A DNA stretch of 64,000 nucleotides from Thermoplasmata archaeon (GCA_003552585.1 PUNK01000035.1:93-64092); one strand, 5' to 3'; counted from the first letter of the stretch, positions 1,982 through 43,993 are shown. The notes: a model not told the origin generated them from the letters alone. Made by a program: numbers and translations.

Positions 1982-2078
1982 ATAGCTGAATTATATGCTG
2001 GCATTTGTTCTTGAAAGAAAAACTTATATATAGTAGAGGCAACATGAGTTTGTTCTACCCGATTCAAGGTGAAATCAG

Positions 2079-5000
2079 ATGCGATTCAGTATGCCAAAGC
2101 TAGGTGACAAACGAGAAAAAAAGGACAAGGATGAATCTACCTTCTTTGAAGACAGATGGGGAACTATAATATGTCTTGTAGGTATTTTTATCCTGGCCTT
2201 CTTTGTACGGACATATTTTGCGTTCGAGCTATCGACTAAATTTGGAACCCCGTATCTACTTACAGGTGGTTCCGACGCTTATTATTATGAGAGGATCGTA
2301 GAATATATCGCATTCAACAACCGTCACCTGCTTCATGACAACATGCTAAATTATCCTCTAGGTCTTACGAATCCCCGACCCCCTATGTTTGGTTGGACGA
2401 CCGCATTGAGTGCTTATTTTATATACCCTTTTGTCGGTGATCTTACCCAGGCAGTTCATTATTCATTCATCTTATCCACGGGATTCTGGGGAGCTCTGAC
2501 GATCTTTCCAACATACCTTGTGGGAAGAGATACCTTCGGAAAGAAGGCGGGGATCGCAGCAGCATTCCTTTTAGCGATAAGCGCCGGGCATCTTCAGAGA
2601 AGTATCATAGGCAATGGTGACCACGACGCGATATATCTTTTCTTTATCGTTGCAGGTTTTTACTTCTTCATGAAGGCTCTGAAAGGCATCCCTGAGGATA
2701 AAGTGTGGGTAAAAGATTGGAAAGTTAGAAAGGATATAAAGAAAGGGATAAACGAATTCGTATCCGGAAACAAACGTTCACTTCTTTACGCCGCCATGGC
2801 CGGTATGTGTGTGGCAACTGTAGCTCTCAGCTGGCAGGGTTATGCCTACGTGTTTGTGATCATCTTAGCATATTATTATGTCCAATTATTCATCGACAAG
2901 TTTAGATACAGAGATTCTTTGGGTGTCACATTCTGTGTAGGAATAGTGTTATCGATGGCACTCCTTTTGGCGGCACCATTTTATCTTACCTCCGGAGTAG
3001 GTGCTCGCTTACCCGATGCAGTTGGGATATGGTACGATGTACCCCTGATATTGACGATAATCGCGATGGTCGGAGGGGTGTTCTTGACAATATCCCGGGA
3101 CTATCCCTGGGTCCTTGTATTTTCTACCATGGCTGCGGTTATAGCAGGTGTTCTGTTTTACGCAGTATACATAAATCCAGCTTTCATGACTGCTCTCACC
3201 ACCGGTGCAGGTTACTTCGTAAGAACACCGGCGATAGAGACGATCGCGGAGGCTCAGGCACCAGAGTTCAGCAACCTCGTTTTATCCTTCGGTCCGGCCA
3301 GCTTTTTCTTATCTGTAGCAGGTATAGCGCTGGCTATATGGAACCTGAAGGGAAAGTGGACCACCGATTTCTTATTCATATTGGTTTGGACCGCCTTTGC
3401 AATATATATGGCCACATCCGCTGCAAGGTTCATCTTCAACGGGTCACCTGCGTTCGCTTTGACCGCTGGTTGGGTCATCGCCATCATAGTGGATAGGACC
3501 GAGTTCAATACGTTGTATGATAGAGTGAAAAGTTTCAGAGGCGACTTAGTAATTGGTTTGAAAAGAGGTGTAAAAGCCCGCCATGTGATCACTGCTTTGT
3601 TCTTAGTATTCTTGATAATGTTGCCTAACGTGATGTATGGTTTTGATGCAGGCATACCCTTCGAAGAGAAAGGAAGGTACGATGATCAAATTCACAGCAG
3701 CCTCCCAGAGTTCATGCGTCCGGATGCAGATGACGAGAGACAGCAGAATTGGCACCTTGGCGCCTTCGGTTATGGTCTGGATAAACCAACCGATTACTGG
3801 CCTGCAGCTTGGGAATGGTTAGATGAAAAGAATTCACACATCCCTCCTGAACAAAGGCCAGGGTTTATGAGCTGGTGGGATTACGGTTTTGAATCGGTCC
3901 AAAGAGGAAAGCATCCCACAGCGGCTGACAACTTCCTTTCCGGACATAGGTTTGCTGGAAATATATTGATGTCCCAGAACGAGACCGAGATGGTATCGCT
4001 CATGTTGGTAAGGATGCTTGAAGCTCCGGTGAGGGAGGATGGAGGATTAGAAGGTGATATCCGAACCATCTTGGAGAATCACTTGGGCAGAGAAAAGACC
4101 GATCACCTTGAAGATGTTATGTTGAATCGGGAAGAATATCGAGAAGTGGTTTTATCCAATCCAGATATATATCGTCCAAGGGCCGAGGATATGCATCCTC
4201 AAAATGTGATGTATGCAAAAACGATGGGTCTGCTTGCCACCGAAGAATTGGACACTATAACTGATATATATAGGGAGATCACGGATGAGATGGGCAAATT
4301 ACTAAAATATCTTGCGGTCGATACACGGCTCTTCCCCATGTCTGCGAGGCAGACAGGTATATTCTATGCTCCTGCTAAACTTTCAGGACACAGGATCGGT
4401 GGAGAAGCTCAGGCCAGAACACCCATCGATTTCTTTACCATATTATATGTAGATGAACAGGGTAATGAATATGAAGACCCGGATGATATACCACCAGAGG
4501 TTCGGATAGTTGATTATAAAATCGATTATACCGATATGTTCTATAATACCGCACTTTACAGGGTCTTTGTAGGATACGCAAATCATTGGGTCGGTGCAGA
4601 CGAGGGCATCCCTGGTCTAGGGGAGGAACAACAGCAACAACAACCTCAACAACAGCAGGAACAACCGATGCCTGGTTGGGGTCTGGAACACTTTAGAATA
4701 GCTACTAGAACAGCATATTACAACCCGTATCCTCATGAAGAAGTACGTGACCATCCCGAAGCATGGAGAGCAGTTTCGCTACAAGAGGCTTTAGAGTATC
4801 AGGAACGAGGAGAGGGCACTGTTGACTTGAGTGCACAGAGTTATATGAGGCAGGGTGTTGTTATCCTGGAATATTCACATGGTGCTCTTGTATCCGGAAG
4901 GGTGACTACCGAGGATGGCACTCCTATCCCTGAAGCCCGGGTCACGGTGACCGATGAATACGGCACTCCACATCACGTAAGCTATACTGATCAAGAAGGT

Positions 5001-8000
5001 AATTATGAGGTCAAAGCCCCTAGAGGTGAGATCAGTATTCATGTAACCACAGGTGGTCAAGAAGGGGAGGCGCCTGGACATGATACAGAACCTCCACTTA
5101 CAAGGAGTGGCGATGAGATAACGTTTGAAGATAATCCTGAAGATGAGTTCGAGTTGCCTCCAGGAGAAGAGATGCCTCCTATTGAGGAGATGCCACCTGA
5201 GGAAGAGATGCCACCGATTGATCAACCCCCTGTTGAAGAACCACCGGAAGAACCTTTAGACCAACAAAAGCTGACGAAAACTGAAAATATCGTATTGGCC
5301 TCGACTACACTTGAAATATCAGAAGAACAGGCCATGAGAAGGAAAAGGGATAGAACAGGAGACGGTCGATGGGATTATTTGATAAGAGAAGACATGACAG
5401 TTCCTGCCGGTGAGATCGATGTTAATGTATTCATCGATGTTGACGACAGTGAAGAATATTCACCAGAGCATGATACATTGGTCCCCTCTTCTATAACAAT
5501 AGAAAACGAGAGACACGGAGTTAGAAGGGAATCTGGCCCAACGGATGGAAGTCACACATTCTCCGGATTAATACCTGGAGTTTACAAGTTAAATACCGAT
5601 GTTGGCACGGAAGAGGTCGAAGTTTATGTTCAGCCAGGGGAAACAGCTACCGAAGACATAGCTGTAGACACATCTCATCTTGAGGGTAGTGTAGAGGTCG
5701 ACGAAGACATAGATTACTCAGATATACGTCTTTATCTCGAGGAAAAGGATGGGGATGAGTACTGGAGTACCACAATAGATGATCAAGGAAATTATACCTT
5801 TTCTAATGTCTATCCTGGAACCTATACTCTCGGGGTTGAAGAAGATGAATTTACCCTTAGAGGAGGACCGTTGGTGGTTGAGCTGCAAAGAGGGGAGACG
5901 GAGGAAAGGATATTAAACATCACGCATGCTCAGATAATAGAAGGAGAAGCAGTAAAAGAAGATTCAGTAATAACTAACCAGCGTATTTCCATCTCCGGAA
6001 TAGGAGATCATGATTACTATCATACGATAAGAACTGACGAATCTGGACAATTCAGGGTCAAACTTCCGGAAGGGGTTTACTCTATCTACGGACTTAATCA
6101 GAGGAATGAAGATAAGTTTGCACATCTAGGTCATCTTAACGCTCCTTACGAAGGGACATATAGAGCTGAATTTACACGTGCATTTAGATTACGTGGAAGA
6201 GTTGAGATCGATCAACAGCCTGTGGATCAGTTCAACCTGTTTATAACGAGCGAAGAAGATGGCGAGATGGAGTTGAAAACCAACTCAAAGGGGATGTTCA
6301 GTGTTGTTTTACCTTCGGACGAGTATTACATCTATGGATGGCACATAGAGTTGGATGCATCATTATTCTACTCCGGCTCTATCACACTAAATTCGGACAC
6401 AACTTATAATTTAGAAACAGAATTTGGAAGGATAGTGAGAGGAGTAACTTATAGAGAGACTGGAGAAAGTATTGAACCGGAAGAAAACTTGCCTATATCT
6501 ACTCAGATAGAGTTGATAATCGACGGTCAATCCACCCGGTTAAGATCGGCAAGGGACGGTAGCTTCACCGTGGTAATACCTGATAGGGATACAGAGATCC
6601 GATTTGAAAAACATGGATATTATGAGAAAGTAAAAACCGTCGAAACTGGAGAGGAATTTGATACGGATCTCTATTTAAGAGCTAAGAATGTGACAGTTGA
6701 GGGATCTACCGTTTTCGCACATGACGGTATAGTTCCTGACGGTATACCGGTTGTTTTTGAACCCATCGATGAATGGGGTATGAAAACCCAAGTCGATACG
6801 ATTGATGGAGAATACCTATTAGAAGTACACCCTGGCAGATACGAGGTGTCCGTCCAATATTCTCCCGAGGATCATGTGCGGTATATTGCTTCTGAAGAGA
6901 TAGAGATATTACCCGGAGAGAACGTCGAATTACCTTTGACACTCAAATATGCAGTAAGGATCCATGGATCTATTCAAGACAACCAAGGTGTAGAGCAATA
7001 TGCAAACATAACTTTCCAGGGTGAATATGAGGAAGAGATACGTGCTGATGGTAGCTACGAGATATACTTACCAACTGGAAGTTATTCATATTGGGCGAAG
7101 GGAGAAGATGAAGAAATGGTAGGAACGGGATCCTTCGAAGAAGATGAGCCCAAACAGGTAAACTTAACTTTGGAAGAAGCTGTTGTCTTCAACCCCTTGG
7201 TAAGATACGATGAAGAGCCTAGGGAAGGAATTCCCGTCGAATTCCAGAATATTGATTCAGGATTTTCATTCAATCATACAACGGATGTAGATGGTGGTTT
7301 CGAAGCTCTTTTAGCACCTGGTCAATATTCTGTATCCGTTGACCATATAACCACCGAACCTGTACGAGGTGTGACAAGAAAGGTTCATTATACTTATAGT
7401 GAAGAATATAATGTTGTAGGATCTACTTCTCCTCATATCCCACTTGAAAGAGAGTTTATAAATGCAACATTATATGGAACAGTAGCATTGGAAGATGAGG
7501 TTTTGGAAGGTGTGGAAGTGACCTTTGAAGCACTCTCCCCCGAGGCCATGTCTAAATCTACGGTAACTACCACTGGTGGACATTTCGAGATCGAGTTGTC
7601 GAAGGGCATGTATAGTGTTTATACCGTGTATGAAACCAGTATAGGGCACTTTGCAGCATTCCATGAGTTCGTTATGACTGACGAGGATGATGAGTTAGAT
7701 ATATCCTTGGAAAGAGCTAGAACATTATACGGTGCGGTATTCGCAGAGGGAGAGCGTTTGGAATCGGAAGTTTTGATCCGTTCAGAGGATGGTCTACAAC
7801 TGACTCTTGAAACGGACAGTAACGGAGAATATTTCACCGCCCTTCCTGAAGGTTTTTATACTATAGAAGTTACAGCTGAAATGGAACGAGAGATAATCGG
7901 TCTTACACAGTACAGAAAGAGTGAACAGGTCGATCTTCAATTCAATACGGAAAGAGATATAGAACTAGAGAAGGTAGAAGAATACGGTATAGAGATAGGT

Positions 8001-8777
8001 GAGGTCCGAGAAAAGTCAGCAAGACCAGGAGATACACTTGTCTACGATGTATCGATCAAAAATACCGGTAACGTGCATGATGACTTCATTATATCTGATA
8101 TGGATGCAGTATGGGATATGGAATTTGATCCAGATCAATTCTCATTGGATCCTCAGCAATCTAGGTCTGTCAGGATAAAGCTCCATGTGCACGAGAATGC
8201 CTCCGTAAGCCACCCACCAATACGTTTTGAAGTTGAATCGTTGAGTTCTGGTGAGACAGAAAGCCGAACAATCCGTGTGAATGTAGCTCAACATCACGGT
8301 GTTGAACTTCATCCTGAAGTTAGCAGCAAAGAAGTAAGAGATGGTAAAATAATTTATACGATACCGCTAGAAAACACAGGAAACGGCGAAGATACATATT
8401 CTCTTTATATACGAAACAGACCTAATTTAGAGACGCTTGGGTGGGACGTGTCTTTGGACAATCGTACTGTTGAGGCTAATGATGGTGAGATAGCCGATGT
8501 CGAGATAATCTTAACTCCAATCACATCTAGACCATCTGGACGAGTGAGGCTCGAAATAGAAGCAGTTTCTCAGGGGGATAATTCAGTCAGATATACGGAG
8601 AATTATCACATGGAGGTGCCTGCTATAACTTCAGATCCAGGAACTTTATTTTTGGTTGGGGAAGGGATCTTCCTTGAAAGAGAACCCTTCGAACTTAGCA
8701 GAATTCACTGGGCATTGATAATAATCGGTGTGGTGATCGCCGGTATATACGTTGCACGTAAGAGGAGGTGGTTCTAG
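2079..8777 (+). CDS. aglB: AglB/STT3 oligosaccharyltransferase fused to a ~1500-aa extracellular extension and a C-terminal TM anchor
   Basis: 2232 aa. The N-terminal ~550 aa is polytopic membrane domain with the STT3 signature WWDYG (MSWWDYGFE). The extension has repeated carboxypeptidase-regulatory-like beta-sandwich modules (GRVTTEDGTPIPEARVTVTDEYG..., GxVxDxxG patterns), a polyQ stretch (QQQQQPQQQQEQ, nt ~4625-4665), EEMPP repeats and a terminal TM plus RKRRWF. Confidence 0.85.
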   Translation: MRFSMPKLGDKREKKDKDESTFFEDRWGTIICLVGIFILAFFVRTYFAFELSTKFGTPYLLTGGSDAYYYERIVEYIAFNNRHLLHDNMLNYPLGLTNPRPPMFGWTTALSAYFIYPFVGDLTQAVHYSFILSTGFWGALTIFPTYLVGRDTFGKKAGIAAAFLLAISAGHLQRSIIGNGDHDAIYLFFIVAGFYFFMKALKGIPEDKVWVKDWKVRKDIKKGINEFVSGNKRSLLYAAMAGMCVATVALSWQGYAYVFVIILAYYYVQLFIDKFRYRDSLGVTFCVGIVLSMALLLAAPFYLTSGVGARLPDAVGIWYDVPLILTIIAMVGGVFLTISRDYPWVLVFSTMAAVIAGVLFYAVYINPAFMTALTTGAGYFVRTPAIETIAEAQAPEFSNLVLSFGPASFFLSVAGIALAIWNLKGKWTTDFLFILVWTAFAIYMATSAARFIFNGSPAFALTAGWVIAIIVDRTEFNTLYDRVKSFRGDLVIGLKRGVKARHVITALFLVFLIMLPNVMYGFDAGIPFEEKGRYDDQIHSSLPEFMRPDADDERQQNWHLGAFGYGLDKPTDYWPAAWEWLDEKNSHIPPEQRPGFMSWWDYGFESVQRGKHPTAADNFLSGHRFAGNILMSQNETEMVSLMLVRMLEAPVREDGGLEGDIRTILENHLGREKTDHLEDVMLNREEYREVVLSNPDIYRPRAEDMHPQNVMYAKTMGLLATEELDTITDIYREITDEMGKLLKYLAVDTRLFPMSARQTGIFYAPAKLSGHRIGGEAQARTPIDFFTILYVDEQGNEYEDPDDIPPEVRIVDYKIDYTDMFYNTALYRVFVGYANHWVGADEGIPGLGEEQQQQQPQQQQEQPMPGWGLEHFRIATRTAYYNPYPHEEVRDHPEAWRAVSLQEALEYQERGEGTVDLSAQSYMRQGVVILEYSHGALVSGRVTTEDGTPIPEARVTVTDEYGTPHHVSYTDQEGNYEVKAPRGEISIHVTTGGQEGEAPGHDTEPPLTRSGDEITFEDNPEDEFELPPGEEMPPIEEMPPEEEMPPIDQPPVEEPPEEPLDQQKLTKTENIVLASTTLEISEEQAMRRKRDRTGDGRWDYLIREDMTVPAGEIDVNVFIDVDDSEEYSPEHDTLVPSSITIENERHGVRRESGPTDGSHTFSGLIPGVYKLNTDVGTEEVEVYVQPGETATEDIAVDTSHLEGSVEVDEDIDYSDIRLYLEEKDGDEYWSTTIDDQGNYTFSNVYPGTYTLGVEEDEFTLRGGPLVVELQRGETEERILNITHAQIIEGEAVKEDSVITNQRISISGIGDHDYYHTIRTDESGQFRVKLPEGVYSIYGLNQRNEDKFAHLGHLNAPYEGTYRAEFTRAFRLRGRVEIDQQPVDQFNLFITSEEDGEMELKTNSKGMFSVVLPSDEYYIYGWHIELDASLFYSGSITLNSDTTYNLETEFGRIVRGVTYRETGESIEPEENLPISTQIELIIDGQSTRLRSARDGSFTVVIPDRDTEIRFEKHGYYEKVKTVETGEEFDTDLYLRAKNVTVEGSTVFAHDGIVPDGIPVVFEPIDEWGMKTQVDTIDGEYLLEVHPGRYEVSVQYSPEDHVRYIASEEIEILPGENVELPLTLKYAVRIHGSIQDNQGVEQYANITFQGEYEEEIRADGSYEIYLPTGSYSYWAKGEDEEMVGTGSFEEDEPKQVNLTLEEAVVFNPLVRYDEEPREGIPVEFQNIDSGFSFNHTTDVDGGFEALLAPGQYSVSVDHITTEPVRGVTRKVHYTYSEEYNVVGSTSPHIPLEREFINATLYGTVALEDEVLEGVEVTFEALSPEAMSKSTVTTTGGHFEIELSKGMYSVYTVYETSIGHFAAFHEFVMTDEDDELDISLERARTLYGAVFAEGERLESEVLIRSEDGLQLTLETDSNGEYFTALPEGFYTIEVTAEMEREIIGLTQYRKSEQVDLQFNTERDIELEKVEEYGIEIGEVREKSARPGDTLVYDVSIKNTGNVHDDFIISDMDAVWDMEFDPDQFSLDPQQSRSVRIKLHVHENASVSHPPIRFEVESLSSGETESRTIRVNVAQHHGVELHPEVSSKEVRDGKIIYTIPLENTGNGEDTYSLYIRNRPNLETLGWDVSLDNRTVEANDGEIADVEIILTPITSRPSGRVRLEIEAVSQGDNSVRYTENYHMEVPAITSDPGTLFLVGEGIFLEREPFELSRIHWALIIIGVVIAGIYVARKRRWF

Positions 8778-9557
8778 TTGCCTCACAATAAAGTATTCTC
8801 TTATTTTTTACTCTTAAGTATGCTCTTGTCCTTGCTTTTGATCCCCTCATCTACAAGAGCTTTCTCTCAACAAGGTGTTGATATCCATATTGATGGTCCT
8901 ACTGAGGTTTTTGTTCAGAAGACTGAGGAATTCAAAATCGAGATTAGAGGTGAATTTGCAACTCAAGAAGCTATCAATTGGAGTATAGAGATTCAAGAAA
9001 CGATGGGAGTGCATATAGAACCGATGACTGACGATTCCACGGAGAGCAATGTATTTTATGTTGATATCACCCCTTTGGAGGAAGACACTTTTACGATCCC
9101 TGTGAAAGGATACTGTTCTGATGGGGAGGAAGTCAGGTATAGTGAGACAAACATAGTTATTGAAACCAAAGAACCCAAAGTTCTAACGTTAGAGGTAAAA
9201 AATTCTCATGACTACAAAATAGACCGTGTAAGGGTCGGTCTTTACATAGACGATACACTTGTTAGGATTCAGAATGTCAACGATCTCGAGCCTAACGAGA
9301 CAAGGATGGTTGAGATATATTGGACCAAAGAAGATCTAGAGCCGGGAGAACATACTCTTGAAGTTTGGTTGGACTACGGACTCCATGGTGAAGATAGATT
9401 CGTTAGAGGAGAACAACTAATCAGCCGCACCTTTCATGTAGAGAGAGATCGAAATTACACGTGGATCATATTAGGTGTGATCGCTGCGGTGTCTGGAGTT
9501 ATATTCTTCCTTTATTATCACTCTAAAAAGAAAAGAAAGAGCAGAAGACCATGGTGA
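8778..9557 (+). CDS. secreted, C-terminally TM-anchored protein, unknown function, co-transcribed with aglB
   Basis: TTG at 8778 immediately after the aglB stop, with GGAGG 9 nt upstream. Alternative ATG at ~8819 begins a signal peptide (MLLSLLLIPSSTRAFS). N-x-S/T sequons present. C-terminal TM followed by a KKKRKSRR tail. Confidence 0.5.
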   Translation: MPHNKVFSYFLLLSMLLSLLLIPSSTRAFSQQGVDIHIDGPTEVFVQKTEEFKIEIRGEFATQEAINWSIEIQETMGVHIEPMTDDSTESNVFYVDITPLEEDTFTIPVKGYCSDGEEVRYSETNIVIETKEPKVLTLEVKNSHDYKIDRVRVGLYIDDTLVRIQNVNDLEPNETRMVEIYWTKEDLEPGEHTLEVWLDYGLHGEDRFVRGEQLISRTFHVERDRNYTWIILGVIAAVSGVIFFLYYHSKKKRKSRRPW

Positions 9558-22340: not shown

Positions 22341-23591
22341 ATGGCTAAATTTATCCGAACCGACAGCGGAATTCTCTGTTGTTCTTACTGTGGAACTGCT
22401 GTAGAGAAGGAAGACGAATCTTGTCAGAATTGTGGCGAAAGGCTTGAGGGAGAGATAACTGACGGTAAGGTATGCCAATCCTGTAATACGGTCTCAAGTA
22501 GACTTGAGGATATATGTCCTAACTGTGGTGCGGAACTCGACTTGATTAAACCTAAGAGCGAGGATGATGAATATCTTTCGCGCCTACTCGGCTGGAGCGA
22601 CGAGGCAGAAGAAAAACTACGCTCGAAAGTTGAGGAGAAAAAAAAAGCAGTAGACGTTTTCAAAAAGATGACCTCTGCTGGAGCTGTAAAAAGTGAAGAT
22701 GATGATATGAAAGATACTGATGAACTATATGATACAGAAAATGGCATCGACTTTGACATGATATTTTCGAAGATCAAAGATAGGAAGGAAAGGGTGAAAG
22801 AAGAACTTCAAAACGTTAATGATGATCTAGTTGTGGAAAAATACGAGAATGAACTTGATCATCTCAAAGAAATGGAGGATACAGCAAGTAGGATGGAAAA
22901 GAATGTGAAACAAACTATATCTAAACAAGAAGAAGAGTTCAAGCTAAAGAGGGAGGAACTAAAAGAGAGGATTAGGGAATTTAAGAAGGTCGTCAAAAGA
23001 AGGGAATCAGAGAAGAATAGGATTAACGAACACAAAGAAAAACTTACAAAAAAAGAAGATGAATTGAAAAAATGGGAGACCCAACTCAGGGCTTGGGAAG
23101 AAGACCTCAGAGATAAGGAAGAAGATATTAGACAAATAAAGGAGATGTATGAGGACGGGGAAAGACAACTAGAGGAGATAGAAAGGGAACTTCCTGAAGA
23201 AGGAGGAGTGACTGAAGAGGAATGGCTTGATGAGCAGAAAAGGGTTCAGAGGGAACTCTTTAAATTGAAGGATGTTTGGGAGGACGATGAAGAGCTTGAA
23301 GAGCTTGATGGGCAAAGTCTACGATATTTCAGAAAGAAGATCAAAGAAAAAGAGGAAGAATGGAAGCAGAAAATGAAGGATCTAGAGAAAGAGCTAGAAA
23401 GGGTGAGGGAAGAGAAGGAGATGGTCATGAAAAAGGAATTGGACATCGACCTGGAAAGAGATGAGATAGGAGAGATCCTGACCGTGCTTGATACATTGTT
23501 GGGTCATCTTCCGGAAGAGAAAATTTCAGAATTTGCAAGTTCGGAGCATTTTGAGCTTTACGAAAAAGTGCTGGATGCTTTTGAAATTTAA
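22341..23591 (+). CDS. double zinc-ribbon protein with long E/K-rich coiled-coil tail
   Basis: Two CxxC-x(n)-CxxC pairs in the N-terminal 70 aa (CSYCG...CQNCG; CQSCN...CPNCG), then ~340 aa of charged coiled coil. Confidence 0.6.
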   Translation: MAKFIRTDSGILCCSYCGTAVEKEDESCQNCGERLEGEITDGKVCQSCNTVSSRLEDICPNCGAELDLIKPKSEDDEYLSRLLGWSDEAEEKLRSKVEEKKKAVDVFKKMTSAGAVKSEDDDMKDTDELYDTENGIDFDMIFSKIKDRKERVKEELQNVNDDLVVEKYENELDHLKEMEDTASRMEKNVKQTISKQEEEFKLKREELKERIREFKKVVKRRESEKNRINEHKEKLTKKEDELKKWETQLRAWEEDLRDKEEDIRQIKEMYEDGERQLEEIERELPEEGGVTEEEWLDEQKRVQRELFKLKDVWEDDEELEELDGQSLRYFRKKIKEKEEEWKQKMKDLEKELERVREEKEMVMKKELDIDLERDEIGEILTVLDTLLGHLPEEKISEFASSEHFELYEKVLDAFEI

Positions 23592-23603: not shown

Positions 23604-26600
23604 ATGGGTCTACGGGAAAAAGCCAGAAAGTTACGTGAGGAAGAGAAACGCATCGAAGAGGACGAAGAGAAAGTTACAGAGGAGTTGGAAGAGTTCCAGG
23701 AACGCCTCAAAGAATTAAAAGAAGAGATAAAAGAACTGGAAGAAAAAAGGGAGGAAGTTCTAGAGGATGTTAAAAAGGAGCAAGCAGAACTGGACGAACT
23801 CATCGAAGAAAAGAAAGAAGCAGAATATGAGGTAGAACAACTTCAAGAAAAGGAAGAGGAATTGATTCAGAAAAGGGAGGATTTGGAGAAAGAGAGAAAG
23901 GATCTAGAATATGAACTTAAAACGAAGGAGAAGGAACTTGAAAAAAGGGAGGAAGAGCTCGAAAAGGAGATAAACGATCTTGAGACTTTCAAAACATCTT
24001 TAGATGAAAGGGAAGAAGAGCTTGCTGAAAAGGAGAAAGAGATCGAGGAGTTAAAAGAAAAAGGAGATGTGATCAGTACTGAACTCGAGGAAATTGAGAA
24101 ACAAAAGAACGAACTGGAAAAGGAAAGAACAGAGCTTGAAGAGGAAAGGGAAGAGCTTACGGAGCTTAAAAAAGATATAGACGAGAAGGAAAAAGAACTC
24201 GAAGAAATGGAAAAGGATATCAAGCATAAAGAGGAGGAACTTGAGGAGATCGAGGAAAAGAGAAAAGAGTTGGAGAAAGAAGAAGAGCAGATAGGTGAGA
24301 GAGAAAGATCTTTGGAAAAATCTCAGGCGGAGTTGAAAAGCGGATTTGAGGAATTGGAACAACTAAAAGCAGATTTAGAGGAGAGAGAACAGAAATTACA
24401 GGATCAAAAAGAGGAGCATGAAGAAGCACTCAATGAAGCGGAATTATTAAAACAGCAGCTGGAAGAAAGAGAGTCTACCCTCGTAGAGAAGGAAAAAGAA
24501 GTGGATGAACTTGAAGAAGAGTTAGAAGAACGGGAGAAAAGTCTCAGAGGTAAAAAGGGTGCTTTAACACGTAAAGAAAATGCATTGACGGAGCTTGAAG
24601 AGCAGTTGAATGAAAAAGAAAGGATGTTGGAAGAGAAAGAAGAAAAGCTAAAAGAGGAAGTTGAGGAGCAGTTGTTCGAGGAAAGGAAACAAGAACTCGA
24701 CGAGCTCGATGGAGAGCTATCTTCCAAAAGGGATGAGAGGGAGGAATTGGAAAGCAAATTAGAGGATTTACAAGGTGAATTACAATCTTTAGAAAAAAGA
24801 AAAGATGAACTTCAGACTCTGAAAGAGGAGGTCCAGCAAAGAGAGAAGCAAGTTGAGGAGAAAGAAGAGCATCTTGAACAAAGAGAGGCTGAAGTCAGTG
24901 ATAAAGAGGAGTTGATAGATCAGGCTGAAGAGAGATTGGAGGAGCTTGAAGAAAGGGAGCAAGAGCTTGACTCAAAAGAACAGAAATTGACAGGATTAGA
25001 GACCCATTTAGAGGAGAGGGAGGAGAATTTAAAGGACAAGGAAGCAGAAATAGACGAAAGGCAGACAGAACTAGATCAATTGGAAACAGAGATAACCGAA
25101 AAAGAGTCATCACTCGCAGAGAGAGAGGAAAAACTTGATGTAAGGTCATCTGAACTTGATGAAAAGGAGGGGGATTTGGAGGAAAGAGAGGAAAAGGTCC
25201 AAAAGAAAGAGAAGGATTTAGATGATCTAGATACAGAGCTGGGTAAAGAAGAAAACAGGCTAGAGGAATGGAAGGCTGAGTTGGAAGACTGGGAAGAAGA
25301 GGTTGAAAGCAAAGAAGAAGAGTTAGATTCATTAGAACAAGAGGTGCAAAAAAGAGTCGAGTCGGTAGAAGAAAGAGAAGAAGAACTGGCAGAAATTGAG
25401 AGTGGATTGGATGATAAGGAAAAGGATCTTATTGAAAGAGAGGAGGAAGTAAATTCACTCAAAGAGGAACTCCGGTTAAAAGAAGAGAGATTGGAAGAAA
25501 GAAAGAAGAACTTAGAGGATCTAGAAAGCAATCTAGATGGTGTCGAAGCCCGTCTTGTCAAAAAAGAAAAGAAATTAGAAAAGTTTGAGGATGACCTTAA
25601 CGAAAGAAAAGATGAAATAGATAAGCGAGAAGAAAAATTGATCGCTAGGGAGAAAGAACTGGAGCGGGAAAGCGAGCTTTTAGAGGAAAAGAGTGGAGAA
25701 CTAAGCGAACTAAATTCAGAATTAGATAATAGAAAATCCCGTTTAGATAAACGAGAGGAAGGATTGGATACGAGAGAAGAAGGGCTTGCAGGATGGGAGG
25801 AAAAACTTGAGCAGAGAGAAAGCTCGGTACAGAAGTTAGAGAACAAATTGGGTTCGATGGAAAATGATTTGATCAAACTTGAGTCTCGCCTAGAAAAGAG
25901 AGAAGCTGAACTGAAGGAATGGAAAGAGAGGTTAAACTCACGTGAGGATGAGCTGGATGAGAGGGAAAAAGAGATCAAGGAAACAACTGATGAACTCAAA
26001 GAAAAAGGTAAAGATCTTGAGAAGCTAGAGGATAGATTGGATGAGAGAGAGGAGGAACTGAACTCGAAGGAAAGCGAACTTGAAGATAAAGATAACAGAC
26101 TCATCTCAGAGAAGAAAAATCTCAAGCTCAAAGAAGAAGGGCTGCACGAATTGAGAGAAGAACTTGCCGACTTTGAGACCGAGTTGGACGAGCGAAATGA
26201 GAAATTTGAACAGAATGTCCAAAAGAAGGAAGAAGAACTAGAAAAGAAAGAGGCTTCATTAGAGCAGCGAGAAGAGATTTTAGATGAGATGGAGGATAAG
26301 TTATCTACAAAGGAGAAAGACCTGAATCAGCGTGAAGGCAGTTTGTCACATCGGGAAGAGAAATTAGAAGAAAGGAAGAGTGAACTCGAAGAGCGAGACT
26401 CTACGGTATCTTTGTTGGAGGACGGCTTAAAAGAGCTTCAAGATGAATTAGAAAAATGGAGAAACCAGCTAGAGGAAAAGGAGGAAGAGATAGAACTTCA
26501 GAGCAATAAAGCTGAGAAACAGTTGAAAGAAGCGAAGAGACTAGATGCAAGGTTGGATCAACGTGAAAATGCAATTCAAGAAAACTTAGAGAAGGTTGAA

Positions 26601-27584
26601 AATGAGAAGAAAGAGGTATTAAATCTGTGGACTGAGGTAGGCGAAAAACTCGAGAGGTTGAGTACACTAGAGGAGGAATTAGAAGATAAGGAAGAAAAAT
26701 TAGATAAATTAGATGATGAGTTGTCTTCTAGGGAAAGAAACATCTCAAATAGAGAGAAAGCGGTGAGTGAAAAGGAAATAAAGTCAGCTGATAGGGAGAG
26801 AAGGATACAGGAACAGATAGAGGACTTGACTTCGGAGATGGAGAAGATACAGTCCTGGAGTGAAGCTGTCCTTGACAAGGAAGAGCAAGTACGTCAGTGG
26901 AAAGAGGATCTCGAGTCTTGGGAGGATGAACTTGAAGATCGAAGGGAAGAAATAGAAGATCAAAGACGTGAACTAAAAGAGATGAGAGAGAAAGTTCCCC
27001 AACGCTTGGAGGAGGTTAAGAAGAGAGAGAAGAAAGTAGAAAGGAAAAGAAGAGACATGATCAATTGGAAGGAAAAATTACAGGCCAAGGAAGAGCTGTT
27101 GAAGGACCAAGAAAGGGAGATGGAAGAGGAAAGAAAGCATCTAGAAGAGGTTAAGGAGAGTGCCATGAACTTCATGGACTATGCCCGATCAAAGAAGGCA
27201 AGAGAAGAGAAGAAATTACGTGAGCAGATAAAAAAGGAAAGGGAAAAATTGGAAAGAGAGAGACATTTGCTTGAAGAAGAGCTAAAAGAGCGTGAGAAAC
27301 GGTTGGAGGATAGGGAAGAGGATCTCGAAACAAAATCATCAAGGATAGAAGAGATCGAAAAGGATTTGAAGGTCCGTAAAGAAAAATTAGATGCCCAACA
27401 GAAGGATATCGTTGAGGAGAGGGAAGAACTAACTGAGATGTGGTCTCAAGTGGAGGAGGAGGCAGAGAAGGTAAAAGATCTTGAGGATTGGGAATCCGAA
27501 TTGAAAGTGAAAGAGGACAAATTGAAAAAGAAGAAAGAAAGGATCGATAGGATGAAGAAGCACTTAGATGACCTTCTCAGTTAG
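23604..27584 (+). CDS. giant (1326 aa) E/K/L-rich coiled-coil protein, no recognisable enzymatic domain
   Basis: Continuous heptad-like KEKELEKREEELEKE repeats throughout. No Walker motifs at either end. AGGAGA RBS 7 nt upstream. In the same frame as the preceding gene, separated by a single TAA. Confidence 0.7.
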   Translation: MGLREKARKLREEEKRIEEDEEKVTEELEEFQERLKELKEEIKELEEKREEVLEDVKKEQAELDELIEEKKEAEYEVEQLQEKEEELIQKREDLEKERKDLEYELKTKEKELEKREEELEKEINDLETFKTSLDEREEELAEKEKEIEELKEKGDVISTELEEIEKQKNELEKERTELEEEREELTELKKDIDEKEKELEEMEKDIKHKEEELEEIEEKRKELEKEEEQIGERERSLEKSQAELKSGFEELEQLKADLEEREQKLQDQKEEHEEALNEAELLKQQLEERESTLVEKEKEVDELEEELEEREKSLRGKKGALTRKENALTELEEQLNEKERMLEEKEEKLKEEVEEQLFEERKQELDELDGELSSKRDEREELESKLEDLQGELQSLEKRKDELQTLKEEVQQREKQVEEKEEHLEQREAEVSDKEELIDQAEERLEELEEREQELDSKEQKLTGLETHLEEREENLKDKEAEIDERQTELDQLETEITEKESSLAEREEKLDVRSSELDEKEGDLEEREEKVQKKEKDLDDLDTELGKEENRLEEWKAELEDWEEEVESKEEELDSLEQEVQKRVESVEEREEELAEIESGLDDKEKDLIEREEEVNSLKEELRLKEERLEERKKNLEDLESNLDGVEARLVKKEKKLEKFEDDLNERKDEIDKREEKLIAREKELERESELLEEKSGELSELNSELDNRKSRLDKREEGLDTREEGLAGWEEKLEQRESSVQKLENKLGSMENDLIKLESRLEKREAELKEWKERLNSREDELDEREKEIKETTDELKEKGKDLEKLEDRLDEREEELNSKESELEDKDNRLISEKKNLKLKEEGLHELREELADFETELDERNEKFEQNVQKKEEELEKKEASLEQREEILDEMEDKLSTKEKDLNQREGSLSHREEKLEERKSELEERDSTVSLLEDGLKELQDELEKWRNQLEEKEEEIELQSNKAEKQLKEAKRLDARLDQRENAIQENLEKVENEKKEVLNLWTEVGEKLERLSTLEEELEDKEEKLDKLDDELSSRERNISNREKAVSEKEIKSADRERRIQEQIEDLTSEMEKIQSWSEAVLDKEEQVRQWKEDLESWEDELEDRREEIEDQRRELKEMREKVPQRLEEVKKREKKVERKRRDMINWKEKLQAKEELLKDQEREMEEERKHLEEVKESAMNFMDYARSKKAREEKKLREQIKKEREKLERERHLLEEELKEREKRLEDREEDLETKSSRIEEIEKDLKVRKEKLDAQQKDIVEEREELTEMWSQVEEEAEKVKDLEDWESELKVKEDKLKKKKERIDRMKKHLDDLLS

Positions 27585-36111: not shown

Positions 36112-38700
36112 TCATTCGAGGAATTCAGGAGGAAGATAGTCTGTCTCCTCTTCCTCATACAACTCCTCTTCGTCGAATTCTAGATCTTCTAATTCCTCTT
36201 TCTTTGTAAAGAAAACAGCCAAGGCGATCCCGCCGGCAACAACTATAACTATAGATGAGATCACCATCATTATGTCCAATGATGTGGTCCGAATCCTGTA
36301 CATCCTTATCTCACCTAAATCCATTTCCTCTCCCGGAGGTACTGTAACTTCTCTTTTAACCGTTTGATATCTTTCTTTTTGGAAGGTGATTTCATACTCA
36401 CCAGCATACGTCTCTATTTTAAATCTTCCATCATGATTAGTGAACACGACATCTCCAGATTCTAGCTCCACCTTAACATCGTGGATCGGATCACCTCTGT
36501 GGTCGACTACAACGCCGGTCAGGTTTCCACTTCTCATGGTTGTGAATGACCATGAATAGGTCTCTTCCAATTCATTCCCTGCAAGGTCGCTACCGTTAAC
36601 AAATATAGTATAATTAGTACCGTATTCTACATCGTTTTCTGGAGCCGCTCTTACTCTATCTTCATCGACCCATGTATGATTGCCTATGGAAAGTTTATCT
36701 GAACTTATATTTACCGATCCTTGATCCATCTCTTCGGAGAATGTGATGTCGATAACAAAATCTCTAGAGACCTCGTCTCCCCTGGGTCGAGCATAGAGAA
36801 CCTCAGGAATGGTGTGATCGACGAATATTTGTAGAGATATGTTCGCTTCGTTACCCGCTCTATCTACAGCTTCCATTCGTATAATATATTCTCCTTCAGT
36901 TAAATTCTCAAACCGATGTGTTCCCTTTGGTGGCACTTCAAACCAATCGCCTTCATCCAGTCTTACCCTTACATCTTCTACACCTGAATTATCGTCGGTC
37001 ACGTTCCACTCCAAAAGGATGAAATCTTTATTAGTGTAATAACCGTCATATGGATAGATGATCTCTATCTCTGGTGACACATCGTCTGGTGACCCTTCCA
37101 TTACCTGGGTGTGAAGGCTTTCTCCAACATCATTGAATGCTGATAACCTGTAATAATATGTTTCATTGATCTCCACTTCGGTATCCGTGTAATTAAACTT
37201 CCCAATATCTTCGATCTCTTCGAGGAGAGAAAAGGAGGTAGGTTCATCACCTTTGTATATCCGATACCCAAGGAGTTCAGTTTTACCCATGGATCGAGGT
37301 TCATCCCACACGATGTTCAGGTATTCTTTACCAGGATCAACTGATGCGTTTCTAGGGTGACTCGGGATGACAGGCATGGATGGTTCTACGAGCGGTAGGT
37401 AATCCTTTGCATCACTTCCAGTGATATTGTATGCTTTATCCACCATCCCATCCTCATCTTCATCGGGTTCGGTCCACTCACTCCAGTGATTCCCAATATC
37501 TGAGGAGTTCCATCTGTTCAAACTAGTGTCATCTCTTCCCTGGCTTTTTGTTTCGTTGTTCAGCTCTCGTATCCCATTGTTATACATAAAAGCGTTTTCA
37601 TAGATCAAATTTTTTGATGATCCCTGGGTCAATATCATACCCTTCCCTGGTGCCCTCATGATCCGGTTATGATGTATGGTATTATTATGGGAATTCCCAA
37701 CCGTTACACCGTTGTTATAGATGATGTTGTTGGATATCATATTGTGGTTCGAGTGAGATTCAAGAACCAAACCAGCTTGTCCATTGTCGATGATTTTGTT
37801 GTCGGCTACAGTCACATGATCAGAGTTGTGAAGGATGATACCCTCTCTACCGTGTTCAAATATATTATTCTCCAAAGTGATATTATTAGATGAATGGATC
37901 CTTAGACCCGCACGAGGACTACTTCTGAATTCGGAGTTTGATACATCTATATCTGAGGAATATGCTAAGATCGATTCAGTATCTGATAGGTCTAAATTCT
38001 GCAGGGTTGCATAGCTAACGTTGGCAAATATGACCTGTCCCGCATTTGAAATTTCCATCCAACCCAAGTTTTCATTGGCGTAGTATTCGATCGGTTTGCC
38101 AGAAAAGGTGTTATCAACCATGATTTGATTTGCCAGAGTTTCTCTATCTAACGTGATGGTCAAGGGGCCATCATATAACGAATTGCCTTCAAATCTATTA
38201 TTTATTGAGCCCTCTATAGATATGCTTACTTCGTTGCCTTCGAAATTATTATCTTCTACTATGTTAGATGCGGAACTCCTGATGAGCAATCCTATGTGGT
38301 TGTTGTTGAAATCACTATCTATCACCCTAACATTACTGCTTTGATGGAGCAGCAATCCTGCTCCCTTTTTCCATATACTATCATCATGAGAAGCATTTCT
38401 GAATTCACAACTTTTAAAATCGGTGTGAAGTGTTGTATTGCCCATATAAAAAGAGTTCCCATCCCCTTCAAAAACATAATTTTCTATAATAAAAGGGTCT
38501 TGTTCTGTACCCTCTCCCTCTATATTTTCTTCTTCTACAAAATCCAACAACTCATCGTCGCTATCAATTCTGACACCTTTTTCATTATGATCATCTTCTG
38601 CAGTACTATTATCTAAAAGGTACATTGAACTGGAGCCGAAGATGATGATCGCTATGAGAACGATCGATATCAGTTTTTGTTCTGTTTTCGCCATTACCAT
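36112..38700 (-). CDS. secreted right-handed parallel beta-helix (NosD/PbH1-like) surface protein with Ig/FN3-like and CarbopepD_reg-like domains; C-terminal TM + acidic tail
   Basis: Signal peptide. Multiple PbH1 repeats (NNHIGLLIRSSASNIVEDNNFEGN..., NIFEHGREGIILHNSDHVTVADNKIIDNGQAGL...). GVVVDHRGDPIHDVKVEL CarbopepD-like module. C-terminal TM then EELEDLEFDEEELYEEEE. Confidence 0.7.
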   Translation of the reverse strand: MVMAKTEQKLISIVLIAIIIFGSSSMYLLDNSTAEDDHNEKGVRIDSDDELLDFVEEENIEGEGTEQDPFIIENYVFEGDGNSFYMGNTTLHTDFKSCEFRNASHDDSIWKKGAGLLLHQSSNVRVIDSDFNNNHIGLLIRSSASNIVEDNNFEGNEVSISIEGSINNRFEGNSLYDGPLTITLDRETLANQIMVDNTFSGKPIEYYANENLGWMEISNAGQVIFANVSYATLQNLDLSDTESILAYSSDIDVSNSEFRSSPRAGLRIHSSNNITLENNIFEHGREGIILHNSDHVTVADNKIIDNGQAGLVLESHSNHNMISNNIIYNNGVTVGNSHNNTIHHNRIMRAPGKGMILTQGSSKNLIYENAFMYNNGIRELNNETKSQGRDDTSLNRWNSSDIGNHWSEWTEPDEDEDGMVDKAYNITGSDAKDYLPLVEPSMPVIPSHPRNASVDPGKEYLNIVWDEPRSMGKTELLGYRIYKGDEPTSFSLLEEIEDIGKFNYTDTEVEINETYYYRLSAFNDVGESLHTQVMEGSPDDVSPEIEIIYPYDGYYTNKDFILLEWNVTDDNSGVEDVRVRLDEGDWFEVPPKGTHRFENLTEGEYIIRMEAVDRAGNEANISLQIFVDHTIPEVLYARPRGDEVSRDFVIDITFSEEMDQGSVNISSDKLSIGNHTWVDEDRVRAAPENDVEYGTNYTIFVNGSDLAGNELEETYSWSFTTMRSGNLTGVVVDHRGDPIHDVKVELESGDVVFTNHDGRFKIETYAGEYEITFQKERYQTVKREVTVPPGEEMDLGEIRMYRIRTTSLDIMMVISSIVIVVAGGIALAVFFTKKEELEDLEFDEEELYEEEETDYLPPEFLE

Positions 38701-41667: not shown

Positions 41668-43398
41668 CTAATCATCGTTAGAGACTTTTTTAAGATAGAT
41701 CAAGACGATCACCACCATCACCCCTGTTATCCCCAGTACGAGGTATCGCATCTCTTCAGAGAGTAGATAATCATCTATGCTTATTTCTACACTCTCTGAT
41801 CTTGGACCTTCTCCTCCTTCGCTAACTGCTGTGATAAAATATGTGTAAGTTTCTCCCCTCTCGACTTGGGTATCCTGGTAATGATAGTTTTGAGTATGGG
41901 CGATGACTTTTCCGTCACGATATACATTAAATCCTATATCAGTGAATATTCTTCTTTCGTTTATATCCCAGTAAAGCTCTATACTTCCATCTTTTTCGAA
42001 TACTTCTATGTTCTTCACCTCGGGTGGGGTATAAAGATCAGAAGTAGTTAGGTCTATCCTTCTTCCCCAGTTGTCATCGATAGTAAAATTGAGCATGGTT
42101 TCATCTACACTGATCGTAAATGTGTCATCTTTTTCATAACCATGTTTCAAAAGATTCCCTAGGTTAAGTTCATAGTACCCGTTGGTGTCGGTGTCTATAT
42201 ACAAACTTTCTCCAGTATGCTGGTTTTTGATTTTGACCTCAGAGAACCATGGATCTTTTTCATCCTCATCCCAAACATTACCATATACAATGTACGGCAC
42301 AGGTGGATACAGGTCTTGATTTCCATCTCCAAGGTCGGTATCAGCTATCCTGCACTGGTATATCAAGGAGTCGTCCAGATCTTGATTTATCTCCATTATA
42401 AGAGCCTCACGAGGATAGAACCCCTCAGCACCAGTATATATTTCAAATAAGAAGGAGTGCGCCCCTGTGTTTTCGTATACCCAATCTGTAGCACCACCTG
42501 GGGCGCTGTACCCTATCTCTTTCTCAGCCCTCCCATATGAATAAGTTCTATCTTCATCTCCACGTTTCGTAGTAAAAGAAGTCATATGTTCCGCAACCGC
42601 CCTGTACCAGTCTTCATGCGGGGTAGGTAGGTTTGCGAAGCCCCAGGGTATCAAGAGTGTTCCCCAATATGAATGTAAGTTCTGATAAGATTGTATGTCG
42701 TTCTCTATGATGAATTCTTTTAAAGCCAAGGTTTCGTTCTCTGAAAAGGGTTTTTCACCACGATAGTCATCTCTATGAGGATAGTCACTCCCCTCCCTCC
42801 AATAGATATCCCAGTTTCTATTCAGATCGACTCCTATGTTGTCTCCGGGGATGGAGTCATTACGATTTTTTCTCCAATTTTGTCTTCTACTGATATCACC
42901 ATCCCCATCATATATGTATCCGTCTGGATTTAAAACAGGCATAACGAAGATCCTTCTGTTGTTTATCAACCAGTGGATCGTATCGTTGCTGTCGTACCCA
43001 TCTATCAATCTCCAAGTTAGATAAGAGGCGACTTGGATAGAAGACCATTCTCTGGCATGCATACCACCGTCTATAAGTATGGAAGGCTTTTTCTCCACTT
43101 GAGTGTTGGAACCAGTGATCTCCAACACCCAAAGATTCCTTCCCTCCCAAGAGTGGCCTATATGGTGTCTAGTAACTATATGAGGGTAGTTTGTTTCTAG
43201 TTCTATATACCATCCATAAAGTTCATCCACTGAGGGATAATTTTCATCGAAGGGGTAATCCGATCGGATATTTTGTTCTTCATAAGGCCCTAAGTCCCCC
43301 TCTAATCCTACTGTCGTACTTCCCAGGAGAAGCAGAAGAACGAGTATGATTGAAACTGCTCGTATTTTCATCGTGAATAGATTCAGCCCGTTAGACAT
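41668..43398 (-). CDS. secreted M14 zinc carboxypeptidase with FN3-like domain and C-terminal TM anchor
   Basis: Signal peptide. HxxE zinc motif in GGMHAREWSS and carboxypeptidase-A-like core. C-terminal TM + KKVSNDD. Confidence 0.75.
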   Translation of the reverse strand: MSNGLNLFTMKIRAVSIILVLLLLLGSTTVGLEGDLGPYEEQNIRSDYPFDENYPSVDELYGWYIELETNYPHIVTRHHIGHSWEGRNLWVLEITGSNTQVEKKPSILIDGGMHAREWSSIQVASYLTWRLIDGYDSNDTIHWLINNRRIFVMPVLNPDGYIYDGDGDISRRQNWRKNRNDSIPGDNIGVDLNRNWDIYWREGSDYPHRDDYRGEKPFSENETLALKEFIIENDIQSYQNLHSYWGTLLIPWGFANLPTPHEDWYRAVAEHMTSFTTKRGDEDRTYSYGRAEKEIGYSAPGGATDWVYENTGAHSFLFEIYTGAEGFYPREALIMEINQDLDDSLIYQCRIADTDLGDGNQDLYPPVPYIVYGNVWDEDEKDPWFSEVKIKNQHTGESLYIDTDTNGYYELNLGNLLKHGYEKDDTFTISVDETMLNFTIDDNWGRRIDLTTSDLYTPPEVKNIEVFEKDGSIELYWDINERRIFTDIGFNVYRDGKVIAHTQNYHYQDTQVERGETYTYFITAVSEGGEGPRSESVEISIDDYLLSEEMRYLVLGITGVMVVIVLIYLKKVSNDD

Positions 43399-43471: not shown

Positions 43472-43993
43472 ATGAAAGATGATAGCCATACATGTACATA
43501 TATGATTGAGGATGATACGAGTGAAACGAAGATCATCGTAGAGTGTGGAGAGTGTTCTAATAGTTTTTCGTTTAGATCATGCCTTCCTGAGATAGTAAGA
43601 TCGTGGGACAAGGTATCTAATTCAGATAAATTGATTTTTTCAGATACCTTTGAACGTAAGTACTCCAAAGGAACCGTTGAGATCATCTCATTCTTTCTTT
43701 CTCTACACGAACAATTTAAAAGAAATTCACGACGTGATCCTGATAAAAAAGAATGTAAGAAATGTGTTATTTCACCAAAAAGGATCTATTCTAGCTTGAT
43801 CGTTGACTTGGAGAAAGATCCCGAAGATATGTTTGAGTCGATCAACTCTGCAGCCCTCGAGCTTATGAAATCCAGCGGATGTCGGTCATGCAGGAGAGCA
43901 ACTATTGAGGAGTTAAGGGTGTTGTCTTCTTCTTTACTTGATATGAACTCGAGAGTATTATCGAAAGCATACGGTATTGTAGGTGAGGGATAG
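43472..43993 (+). CDS. hypothetical Cys-pair protein (possible Zn-binding), overlaps the start of the secretion ATPase
   Basis: 173 aa. Cys pairs CGEC, CKKC and CRSC. 11-nt overlap with the downstream gene. Confidence 0.4.
   Translation: MKDDSHTCTYMIEDDTSETKIIVECGECSNSFSFRSCLPEIVRSWDKVSNSDKLIFSDTFERKYSKGTVEIISFFLSLHEQFKRNSRRDPDKKECKKCVISPKRIYSSLIVDLEKDPEDMFESINSAALELMKSSGCRSCRRATIEELRVLSSSLLDMNSRVLSKAYGIVGEG

Follow-up and report, generated by a model that had tools for sequence, protein, structure and literature searches.

AglB, the archaeal oligosaccharyltransferase (OST), is usually treated as a single-subunit enzyme of 600-1000 amino acids (aa). AglB-L of A. fulgidus (AfAglB-L; PDB 3WAJ, 3WAK, 5GMY and 7E9S) is a single-subunit enzyme whose deposited chains have 875 residues, and we take the AglB, STT3 and PglB OSTs to share the GT-C fold and to belong to CAZy family GT66. 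The accessory subunits of the eukaryotic OST (ribophorins and OST48, for example) are type-I membrane proteins whose beta-sandwich domains lie in the lumen, and eukaryotic NOMO and Nup210 are lumenal rods of tandem immunoglobulin (Ig)/transthyretin-like domains with one C-terminal transmembrane (TM) helix. We know of no characterised AglB for which either a stalk-type extension or a partner gene has been described. Here we analysed a 64,000-nucleotide stretch of DNA from a Thermoplasmata archaeon (GCA_003552585.1 PUNK01000035.1:93-64092; the window), which carries a gene for a giant AglB/STT3 protein of 2232 aa (2079..8777, + strand). By sequence and predicted structure, this protein is an intact AglB extended by a stalk, a fixed succession of 11+2 beta-sandwich domains, and re-anchored by a TM helix. 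A gene for a partner protein lies directly downstream, and family comparison identifies the giant form as the standard one across a large Thermoplasmata clade, comprising Methanomassiliicoccales and the haloalkaliphilic Halarchaeoplasma, Natronoplasma and Saliniplasma groups.

The gene is one uninterrupted reading frame of 2232 codons with zero internal stops, ending in a TAG codon at 8775-8777, and a protein identical to its product (P0001) is present in NCBI-derived data. A previous reading of the window from its sequence, hereafter the original prediction, had called a giant 2232-aa AglB/STT3, and this call held: we found a single frame with Pfam matches to STT3 and CarboxypepD_reg. The STT3 match (PF02516; 57.6 bits, cut-off 24.5) covers aa 64-455. 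Among NCBIfam models, TIGR04154 (archaeo_STT3) matches best; it aligns positions 1-789 of its 831 to aa 30-981 at 232.3 bits, relative to a curated cut-off of 450. We modelled aa 1-1110 with AlphaFold2 (AF2) from an alignment of 44 family sequences and obtained a mean predicted local distance difference test (pLDDT) of 84.8 and a predicted template-modelling score (pTM) of 0.83. Foldseek comparison of this core model with the PDB returned AfAglB-L (7e9s) as the best match (E 7.6e-28, target-normalised TM-score 0.66), and eukaryotic STT3A/B (E 1e-16 to 1e-19) and PglB were among the further matches, the top matches spanning E 7.6e-28 to 1.5e-10. Searching PDB sequences with phmmer also found A. 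fulgidus AglB-L, with the catalytic segments aligned. The TM GT-C domain occupies aa 1-525 (2079..3653), begins with a basic cytoplasmic N-terminus and was delimited by Pfam STT3, AF2 helices, Foldseek and hydropathy; we counted 13 TM helices by eye in the core model. It is followed by the AglB C-terminal globular domain at aa 526-929 (3654..4865), which was assigned from AF2, Foldseek and the TIGR04154 alignment and has a mean pairwise identity across the family of 46.9%, equal to that of the TM core.

We assessed conservation by aligning 44 full-length members of the family, the window protein included. The putative first-loop catalytic and metal-binding aspartate, D66 in GGSDAYYY (2274..2276), aligns with GGNDPWYY of AfAglB-L and is invariant. 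Similarly, the second acidic/histidine metal-binding motif, D181-H182-D183 in GNGDHDA (2619..2627), falls on GFNDHH of AfAglB-L, with H182 and D183 invariant. The TIXE motif of external loop 5 reads TIAE at aa 388-391 (3240..3251), and its T388, I389 and E391 do not vary. The WWDYG motif, which the original prediction had correctly recognised and placed at about aa 597, lies at aa 599-603 (3873..3887); W599 to G603 are likewise invariant. No other WWDxG occurs when the window is translated in all six frames, and that scan found no second AglB within the 64 kb. With all assigned catalytic motifs kept, we conclude from sequence and model that the N-terminal ~930 aa form a functional-looking AglB/STT3. 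The chain from aa ~526 to ~2207 would be extracellular, because the N-terminus and the C-terminal tail are both basic and so conform to the positive-inside rule.

The original prediction had described a stalk of about 1500 aa made of many carboxypeptidase-regulatory-like repeats following the core and ending in a second membrane anchor. The repeats were borne out by hidden Markov models (HMMs), predicted structure, fold search and repeat profile comparison. The length was overestimated: the stalk proper, aa 930-2200, comes to ~1270 aa, because aa 526-929 are the ordinary AglB globular domain. The annotation with HMMs that had been proposed as a check placed both STT3 and CarboxypepD_reg above their Pfam cut-offs, the latter (PF13620) at 155.8 bits against 32.3, and further Pfam matches in the stalk were to NOMO_5th (55.9 bits against 27), SdrD_B, SpaA and the EMC7 family. 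An AF2 model of aa 1086-2232 is all-beta (mean pLDDT 87.5, pTM 0.43), with a terminal helix that coincides with the TM segment. To compare the domains we cut the family alignment at predicted boundaries and ran hhalign all against all. Eleven units (D1-D11, aa 930-1958) proved homologous to one another, with probabilities of 93-99%. D1 (aa 930-1085, 4866..5333) contains the best CarboxypepD_reg stretch at aa 938-995 and matches D2-D11 at 93-98%; D2-D11 are ten CarboxypepD_reg/transthyretin-like domains at aa 1111-1958 (5409..7952), supported by AF2, hhalign and Pfam. Two CARDB/DUF11-like domains, C1 and C2, follow at aa 1959-2180 (7953..8618), each with an NTGN motif (aa 1995 and 2099). C1 and C2 match each other at 99% probability and show no relation to D1-D11; their family-model scores are all below threshold (FixG_C 25.5 against 25.6, DUF11 repeat 20.8 against 24, choice_anch_T 60.9 against 70). 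The S-layer model NF033506 (PACE-CTERM) reached 29.5 bits against a cut-off of 110 and spans the CARDB-like region only.

Across the family, mean pairwise identity is 47% in the core and 44% in D1, and 22-30% in D2-D11 and C1-C2. Because D1 is conserved as strongly as the core, it is probably an integral part of the enzyme, and the TIGR04154 alignment, which runs into D1, suggests that ordinary AglBs of that type already end in a related beta-rich unit. Apart from D1, the most conserved element of the stalk is a nearly invariant DxxGDGxWDY (DRTGDGRWDY here) between D1 and D2 at aa 1091-1100 (window 5349-5378), which resembles calcium-binding loops. Stalk length ranges from 1188 to 1289 aa among the aligned members, all 44 of which end in a TM helix and a basic tail. 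In the window protein the second anchor, as originally predicted, is a TM helix at aa 2208-2226, followed directly by the polybasic tail RKRRWF (helix and tail, 8700..8774); it is the sole hydrophobic segment past aa 525 by hydropathy and a helix in the AF2 model. We considered archaeosortase/PGF-CTERM sorting and ruled it out: no conserved PGF-type sorting motif precedes the helix across the 44 members, and TIGR04154 stays below its cut-off.

The giant form is widespread. Among 5.8 billion proteins searched, the matches fell into more than 120 clusters (2120-2384 aa, nearly all of them 2120-2260 aa), whose members belong to Thermoplasmata, Methanomassiliicoccales and Ca. Saliniplasma. When each GTDB species was represented by a single genome, 381 genomes contained a relative. 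The length comparison with related genomes that the original prediction had recommended was made at the best 80 loci of these genomes: 67 are complete single reading frames of 1797-2335 aa (median 2164 aa). Thus the protein is unusually long relative to characterised AglBs, as had been noted, but its length is the norm in this clade. Two genes split by a stop codon or frameshift, the finding that would have overturned the original prediction, were not seen, since the same single-frame architecture recurs in all 67 complete genes. The alignment of the 44 members is collinear along its full length, and base composition in the window shows no break at the core/stalk junction. The cultured type species Methanomassiliicoccus luminyensis encodes a 2173-aa member in its isolate genome (contig CAJE01000020.1), and some other members lie on contigs of up to 2.5 Mb. 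The closest relatives, with 64-68% core identity, come from metagenome-assembled genomes (MAGs) from soda-lake sediment, including Ca. Halarchaeoplasma and Haladaptatiplasma, so the window lineage is most likely a haloalkaliphilic member of the Thermoplasmata. An exhaustive HMMER search with the core only retrieved 292 representatives (50% identity level) at E <= 1e-30; the best 150 of these are mostly 2000-2775 aa long, some reaching ~3170 aa, with identity down to 29%. A few relatives of ~3170 aa carry N-terminal extensions. Proteins P0264-P0291 (~1130-1290 aa) match core residues ~25-650 only, at ~33-38% identity, and may represent a shorter sister form of this AglB lineage. At one locus (L074 4070-9589, MAG UBA10834) the giant frame is truncated to ~1800-1840 aa, with the partner a further 1067 nt downstream, which probably reflects a frameshift, a pseudogene or an assembly error in that genome. 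Public labels from automatic annotation are inconsistent ("carboxypeptidase regulatory-like", "GT39", "STT3 domain-containing", "hypothetical"). We found no account of the giant architecture in the literature on archaeal AglB and Thermoplasmata that we covered, which did not extend to the survey of Nikolayev et al. 2020, where an earlier mention is possible; neither a paper of 2025 on the surfaces of Thermoplasmatales nor an N-glycosylation review of 2024 mentions it.

Directly after the giant gene in the window is the partner gene (8778..9557, + strand), whose frame begins right after the TAG and in frame with it. It encodes 259 aa from a TTG at 8778; the source record starts it at an ATG at 8820 (245 aa). 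The protein has a signal-peptide-like N-terminus, CARDB-type domains (Pfam CARDB, PF07705; 30.1 bits, cut-off 22.7), a TM helix and the tail KKKRKSRRPW. A word-indexed homologue search with the partner returned only 3 proteins; its distribution was instead taken from the family loci by tblastn and HMM. By tblastn, the partner was directly 3' of the giant gene in 48 of the best 80 loci. When the first downstream frame was inspected, it had the same design of signal peptide, TM helix and polybasic tail, at offsets of -13 to +40 nt. With an HMM, the partner was detected directly downstream in 67 of 68 eligible loci; the 8 positive loci outside the HMM training set all scored strongly, and the seven that we inspected had E <= 1e-56. 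In M. luminyensis the called giant and partner genes overlap by 4 nt, and the partner is 245 aa. Stop read-through into the partner was rejected as a general mechanism, because at most loci the partner starts in another frame, at offsets of -13 to +2.

Pairwise BLASTP of the partner against the C-terminus of the giant protein was insignificant, and only profile-profile comparison revealed their kinship: hhalign of the partner family against the C1-C2-TM module gave 96.8% probability (E 2.8e-10, 152 columns). We conclude from these profiles that the partner, a predicted type-I membrane protein of ~250 aa, is a remote homologue of the membrane-proximal module of the stalk. The Shine-Dalgarno-like AGGAGGTG (8763..8770), 7 nt before the TTG at 8778, is formed by the K-R-R-W codons AAG AGG AGG TGG of the giant gene and would serve as the ribosome-binding site of the partner. 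The conserved RKKRW-type tail may be partly constrained by this service. In at least 17 Methanomassiliicoccales-type loci, a canonical 107-aa thioredoxin (WCGPC) is encoded on the same strand just past the partner (L081 13437-13760 in M. luminyensis; others include L036, L040, L054, L057, L060 and L069), and the M. luminyensis protein has a weak Pfam OST3_OST6 match. The thioredoxin is probably cytoplasmic, because it is without signal peptide or TM helix, and it has no counterpart in the window.

A potential model for this architecture is that the giant AglB, with its fixed 11+2-domain stalk, and the partner form an extracellular scaffold, and we consider this overall reading, with the low-complexity tracts described below as incidental features, fairly probable. 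From fold and motifs, the giant AglB is predicted to transfer oligosaccharide to the asparagine of N-X-S/T. The chain would exit the membrane after the GT-C core, run extracellularly as the stalk and re-enter the same membrane, so that stalk and partner would make a fixed-length arch or scaffold. Thirteen domains at ~3 nm each, the figure implied by NOMO data, would give a contour of ~40 nm, and because both ends are in one membrane the arch would be at most ~20 nm high. Such a scaffold could organise the enzyme inside the glycoprotein coat of cells which, in the one cultured relative with a documented envelope, lack an S-layer, and the stalk itself would be a likely substrate for N-glycosylation. 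We favour a scaffold because the stalk keeps its length and the order of its domains although its sequence is poorly conserved, because sequons are enriched along the stalk in many members (2-3 times above expectation, for example 37 observed versus 13 expected), and because of two published observations. In Methanomethylophilus alvi, a cultured member of the Methanomassiliicoccales, no cell wall or S-layer was seen (PMC10673518). NOMO, a "beads on a string" rod of tandem Ig-like domains with a C-terminal TM helix, offers a precedent: its length determines how far apart membranes of the endoplasmic reticulum (ER) lie (PMC8327139).

Several observations weigh against this model, which is drawn from architecture, length conservation and analogy. 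The pTM of 0.43 makes the inter-domain arrangement of the stalk model unreliable, and an arch and a compact body are not told apart by it. Identity of 22-28% across the family in D2-D11 would suit a generic spacer or a diversifying surface protein alike. The sequon excess in the window protein is slight (9 observed versus 5.9 expected). The kinship of the partner with C1-C2 may reflect merely a common CARDB-type fold. In addition, the conserved segment VDTRLFP...GIFYAPAKL at aa 747-768 fits, on sequence alone, no definite DK/MI call for the Ser/Thr pocket of the enzyme.

We also considered a more far-reaching version of the scaffold model, which we regard as doubtful. Two membranes with a space between them have been reported for M. 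luminyensis. In Methanomassiliicoccales and related Thermoplasmata, the OST could be an obligate two-protein machine in which AglB, with its own fixed-length extracellular "ruler", and a dedicated CARDB partner form a major envelope element of cells that would lack a wall and an S-layer, either a glycosylated canopy or an inter-membrane tether, and glycan transfer is physically coupled to building of the surface.

The stalk and partner could instead be built-in equivalents of the non-catalytic subunits of the eukaryotic OST, acting to recruit, hold or shield nascent polypeptides or to couple the enzyme to Sec. The near-universal partner, abutting or overlapping the giant gene and combining signal peptide, beta-sandwich, TM helix and basic tail, is consistent with such a role, as is a D1 conserved like the catalytic core. 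The Pfam matches to NOMO and EMC7 beta-sandwich families point the same way; these families occur in translocon-associated ER proteins (PMC11169918). The thioredoxin after the partner in at least 17 loci, with its weak OST3_OST6 match in M. luminyensis, could be added to this list, but the protein is probably cytoplasmic and is missing from the window. Neither stalk nor partner gave a sequence or fold match to OST accessory subunits. Foldseek of the stalk model against the PDB returned generic tandem-Ig matches only, at a TM-score of at most 0.30 (at most 0.13 when normalised by query), and gave no specific functional lead; the matches were ciliary central-pair proteins, Nup210, alpha-2-macroglobulins and BaTIE. 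Further, ten fast-evolving repeats exceed what a binding platform would need. We therefore rank this explanation lower than the scaffold and consider it unlikely.

An adhesin or cell-contact module, for which the AglB core would be mainly the membrane anchor, also ranks below the scaffold and seems to us quite improbable. Domains of the CarboxypepD_reg, SdrD_B, SpaA and CARDB types are typical of bacterial adhesins and pilins, and D2-D11 evolve fast, as an adhesin might. Anchors at both ends would be unusual for a projecting adhesin, however, and the catalytic residues of its supposed anchor are invariant. Domain number and order are also fixed across soda-lake sediment, rumen and bioreactors, whereas the repeat number of adhesins usually varies.

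The original prediction had drawn attention to a glutamine run and to EEMPP repeats, both placed at the core/stalk junction and read as possible linkers or slippage-prone regions. Tandem Repeats Finder detected both tracts at the DNA level. The glutamine run (polyQ; QQQQQPQQQQEQ, 4629..4664, aa 851-862) proved to sit in a variable, predicted-disordered surface loop inside the globular domain, and the three EEMPP units (aa 1030, 1036 and 1042, to aa 1047; 5166-5219), an imperfect 18-nt repeat, lie inside an acidic, proline-rich loop insertion of ~65 aa in D1 (aa 994-1059, 5058..5255). The core model has pLDDT < 50 at aa 851-859 and at aa 994-1059, so the linker idea stands as far as disorder goes, but these are loop insertions and do not lie between domains. 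The polyQ loop varies in length and sequence throughout the family, and the closest relatives read ...IEEVQPMP... there. Only P0016 among the 44 aligned members has a comparable polyQ, SQQQQLQQQQQQQY at the same loop, apparently of independent origin, and the EEMPP-bearing insertion is missing from all 43 other members. In P0017 (Ca. Saliniplasma) there is an acidic GGMEI/DPG repeat insertion of ~100 aa in D2. Aspartate and glutamate make up 20.9% of the stalk in the window protein versus ~10% in Methanomassiliicoccales members, and the tracts fit a general acidic, low-complexity drift of the halophilic subclade.

Could the tracts have a function, as contingency or linker elements that are driven by slippage and adjust how long or flexible the stalk is? 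That both are tandem repeats in DNA and predicted to be disordered would be expected, and an independent polyQ in the same loop of P0016 and another acidic repeat insertion in D2 of the halophilic P0017 could be read in the same sense. The tracts are weak slippage substrates, because the polyQ codons are a mixture of CAA and CAG broken by CCT and GAA, with CAA x3 as the longest pure run, and the codons of the three EEMPP units show synonymous differences. Together with their absence from the closest relatives and their position in loops, this leaves a functional role very improbable. We conclude from sequence and predicted disorder that the polyQ and EEMPP tracts are lineage-specific loop insertions that appear to have no conserved role and to be incidental.

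That the long frame is an artefact, whether of a chimeric assembly or of a sequencing frameshift joining an AglB to a surface protein, has only its unusual length beside characterised AglBs in its favour, and we give it practically no credence: the 67 complete frames come from independent assemblies, different assemblers and different habitats, with the M. luminyensis isolate genome and long contigs among the sources, and the range of stalk lengths, the collinearity of the alignment without a compositional break at the junction and the independence of the genomes therefore exclude fusion by error.

Upstream of the giant gene, sequence inspection identified a TATA-box-like TTATATATA (2024..2032, + strand), 47 nt 5' of the ATG, which is a putative promoter of the gene, and a Shine-Dalgarno-like GGTGA at 2068-2072. 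After the partner, the window encodes a UDP-GlcNAc 2-epimerase, a GT4 glycosyltransferase and, further on, a flippase-like gene. Other parts of the window encode further proteins. The 862-aa product of 36112-38700 (- strand) is a predicted surface protein that combines a NosD-type right-handed beta-helix with Big_5 and CarboxypepD_reg domains and has a signal/anchor sequence, a TM helix near the C-terminus and an acidic tail; M. luminyensis has a 1939-aa NosD beta-helix protein ~4 kb downstream of its giant AglB. A 1326-aa protein at 23604-27584 (+) is 31% glutamate, 14% lysine and 14% leucine and looks like one continuous charged coiled coil; its Pfam RNase_Y_N match is probably compositional, and its gene causes the extreme purine skew of the region, with a GC skew of up to 0.51. 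Directly before it (22341-23591, +) lies the gene for a 416-aa double-zinc-ribbon protein with an E/K-rich C-terminal end. Adjoining genes at 43983-47676 (+) encode a 577-aa ATPase of the T2SSE type and a 655-aa membrane protein resembling T2SSF/TadC, a pair whose sequences suggest a type-IV-pilus-like or archaellum-like assembly system, and an M14 carboxypeptidase with a C-terminal TM helix is encoded nearby (41668-43398, -). GC content is 0.47-0.49 in the block 48000-60000, versus ~0.41-0.45 elsewhere in the window; the block includes an FAD-binding protein (50502-52157, -), a NiFe-hydrogenase large subunit (54102-55559, -) and an HdrA-like Fe-S flavoprotein of 1000 aa (56950-59952, -).

These results place the emphasis on the clade-wide giant architecture and the partner gene, not on the tracts. 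In place of the usual form, a whole class-level clade, to which methanogens of gut and rumen and a cultured type species belong, uses an AglB of ~2160 aa with a stalk of conserved length; what is new here is an adjoining gene for a ~250-aa partner in 67 of 68 loci. If stalk and partner are structural, they would bear on what covers and spaces the Thermoplasmata surface and would tie glycosylation physically to envelope building. If they are accessory subunits, a multi-component OST would have arisen independently here. Both ideas are directly testable in M. luminyensis, which is in culture.

Compared with known systems, the locus resembles the eukaryotic multi-subunit OST in placing an STT3 homologue beside membrane-anchored extracytoplasmic beta-sandwich modules; no homology of stalk or partner to the accessory subunits was detected, and the likeness is one of functional analogy only. 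It resembles NOMO in a tandem string of beta-sandwiches that ends at a TM anchor, with NOMO_5th above its cut-off in the window protein and NOMO1-like_2nd matched in family members, and it resembles Nup210 through the Nup210 chains among the Foldseek matches of the stalk. This likeness is at the level of domain type only and implies no orthology. Membership of the NOMO family was considered and rejected, because the N-terminus is a 13-TM enzyme and the overall fold likeness is generic: NOMO begins with a signal peptide, has ~12 Ig/transthyretin-like domains and carries no enzyme, whereas the string in the window protein is fused to one and anchored at both ends. The archaeosortase A system-associated AglB subfamily TIGR04154 is the closest NCBIfam model, yet the window protein scores far under its cut-off and, unlike that subfamily, has no PGF-CTERM-like motif ahead of its C-terminal TM helix. 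With AfAglB-L, the window protein shares the GT-C TM fold, the C-terminal globular domain, the first-loop Asp, the D-H-D/H motif, TIXE and WWDYG. In contrast to AfAglB-L, with which it is 16% identical, it adds ~1300 residues beyond the globular domain, made up of 11 transthyretin-like and 2 CARDB-like domains plus another membrane anchor, and it is accompanied by a dedicated downstream partner gene.

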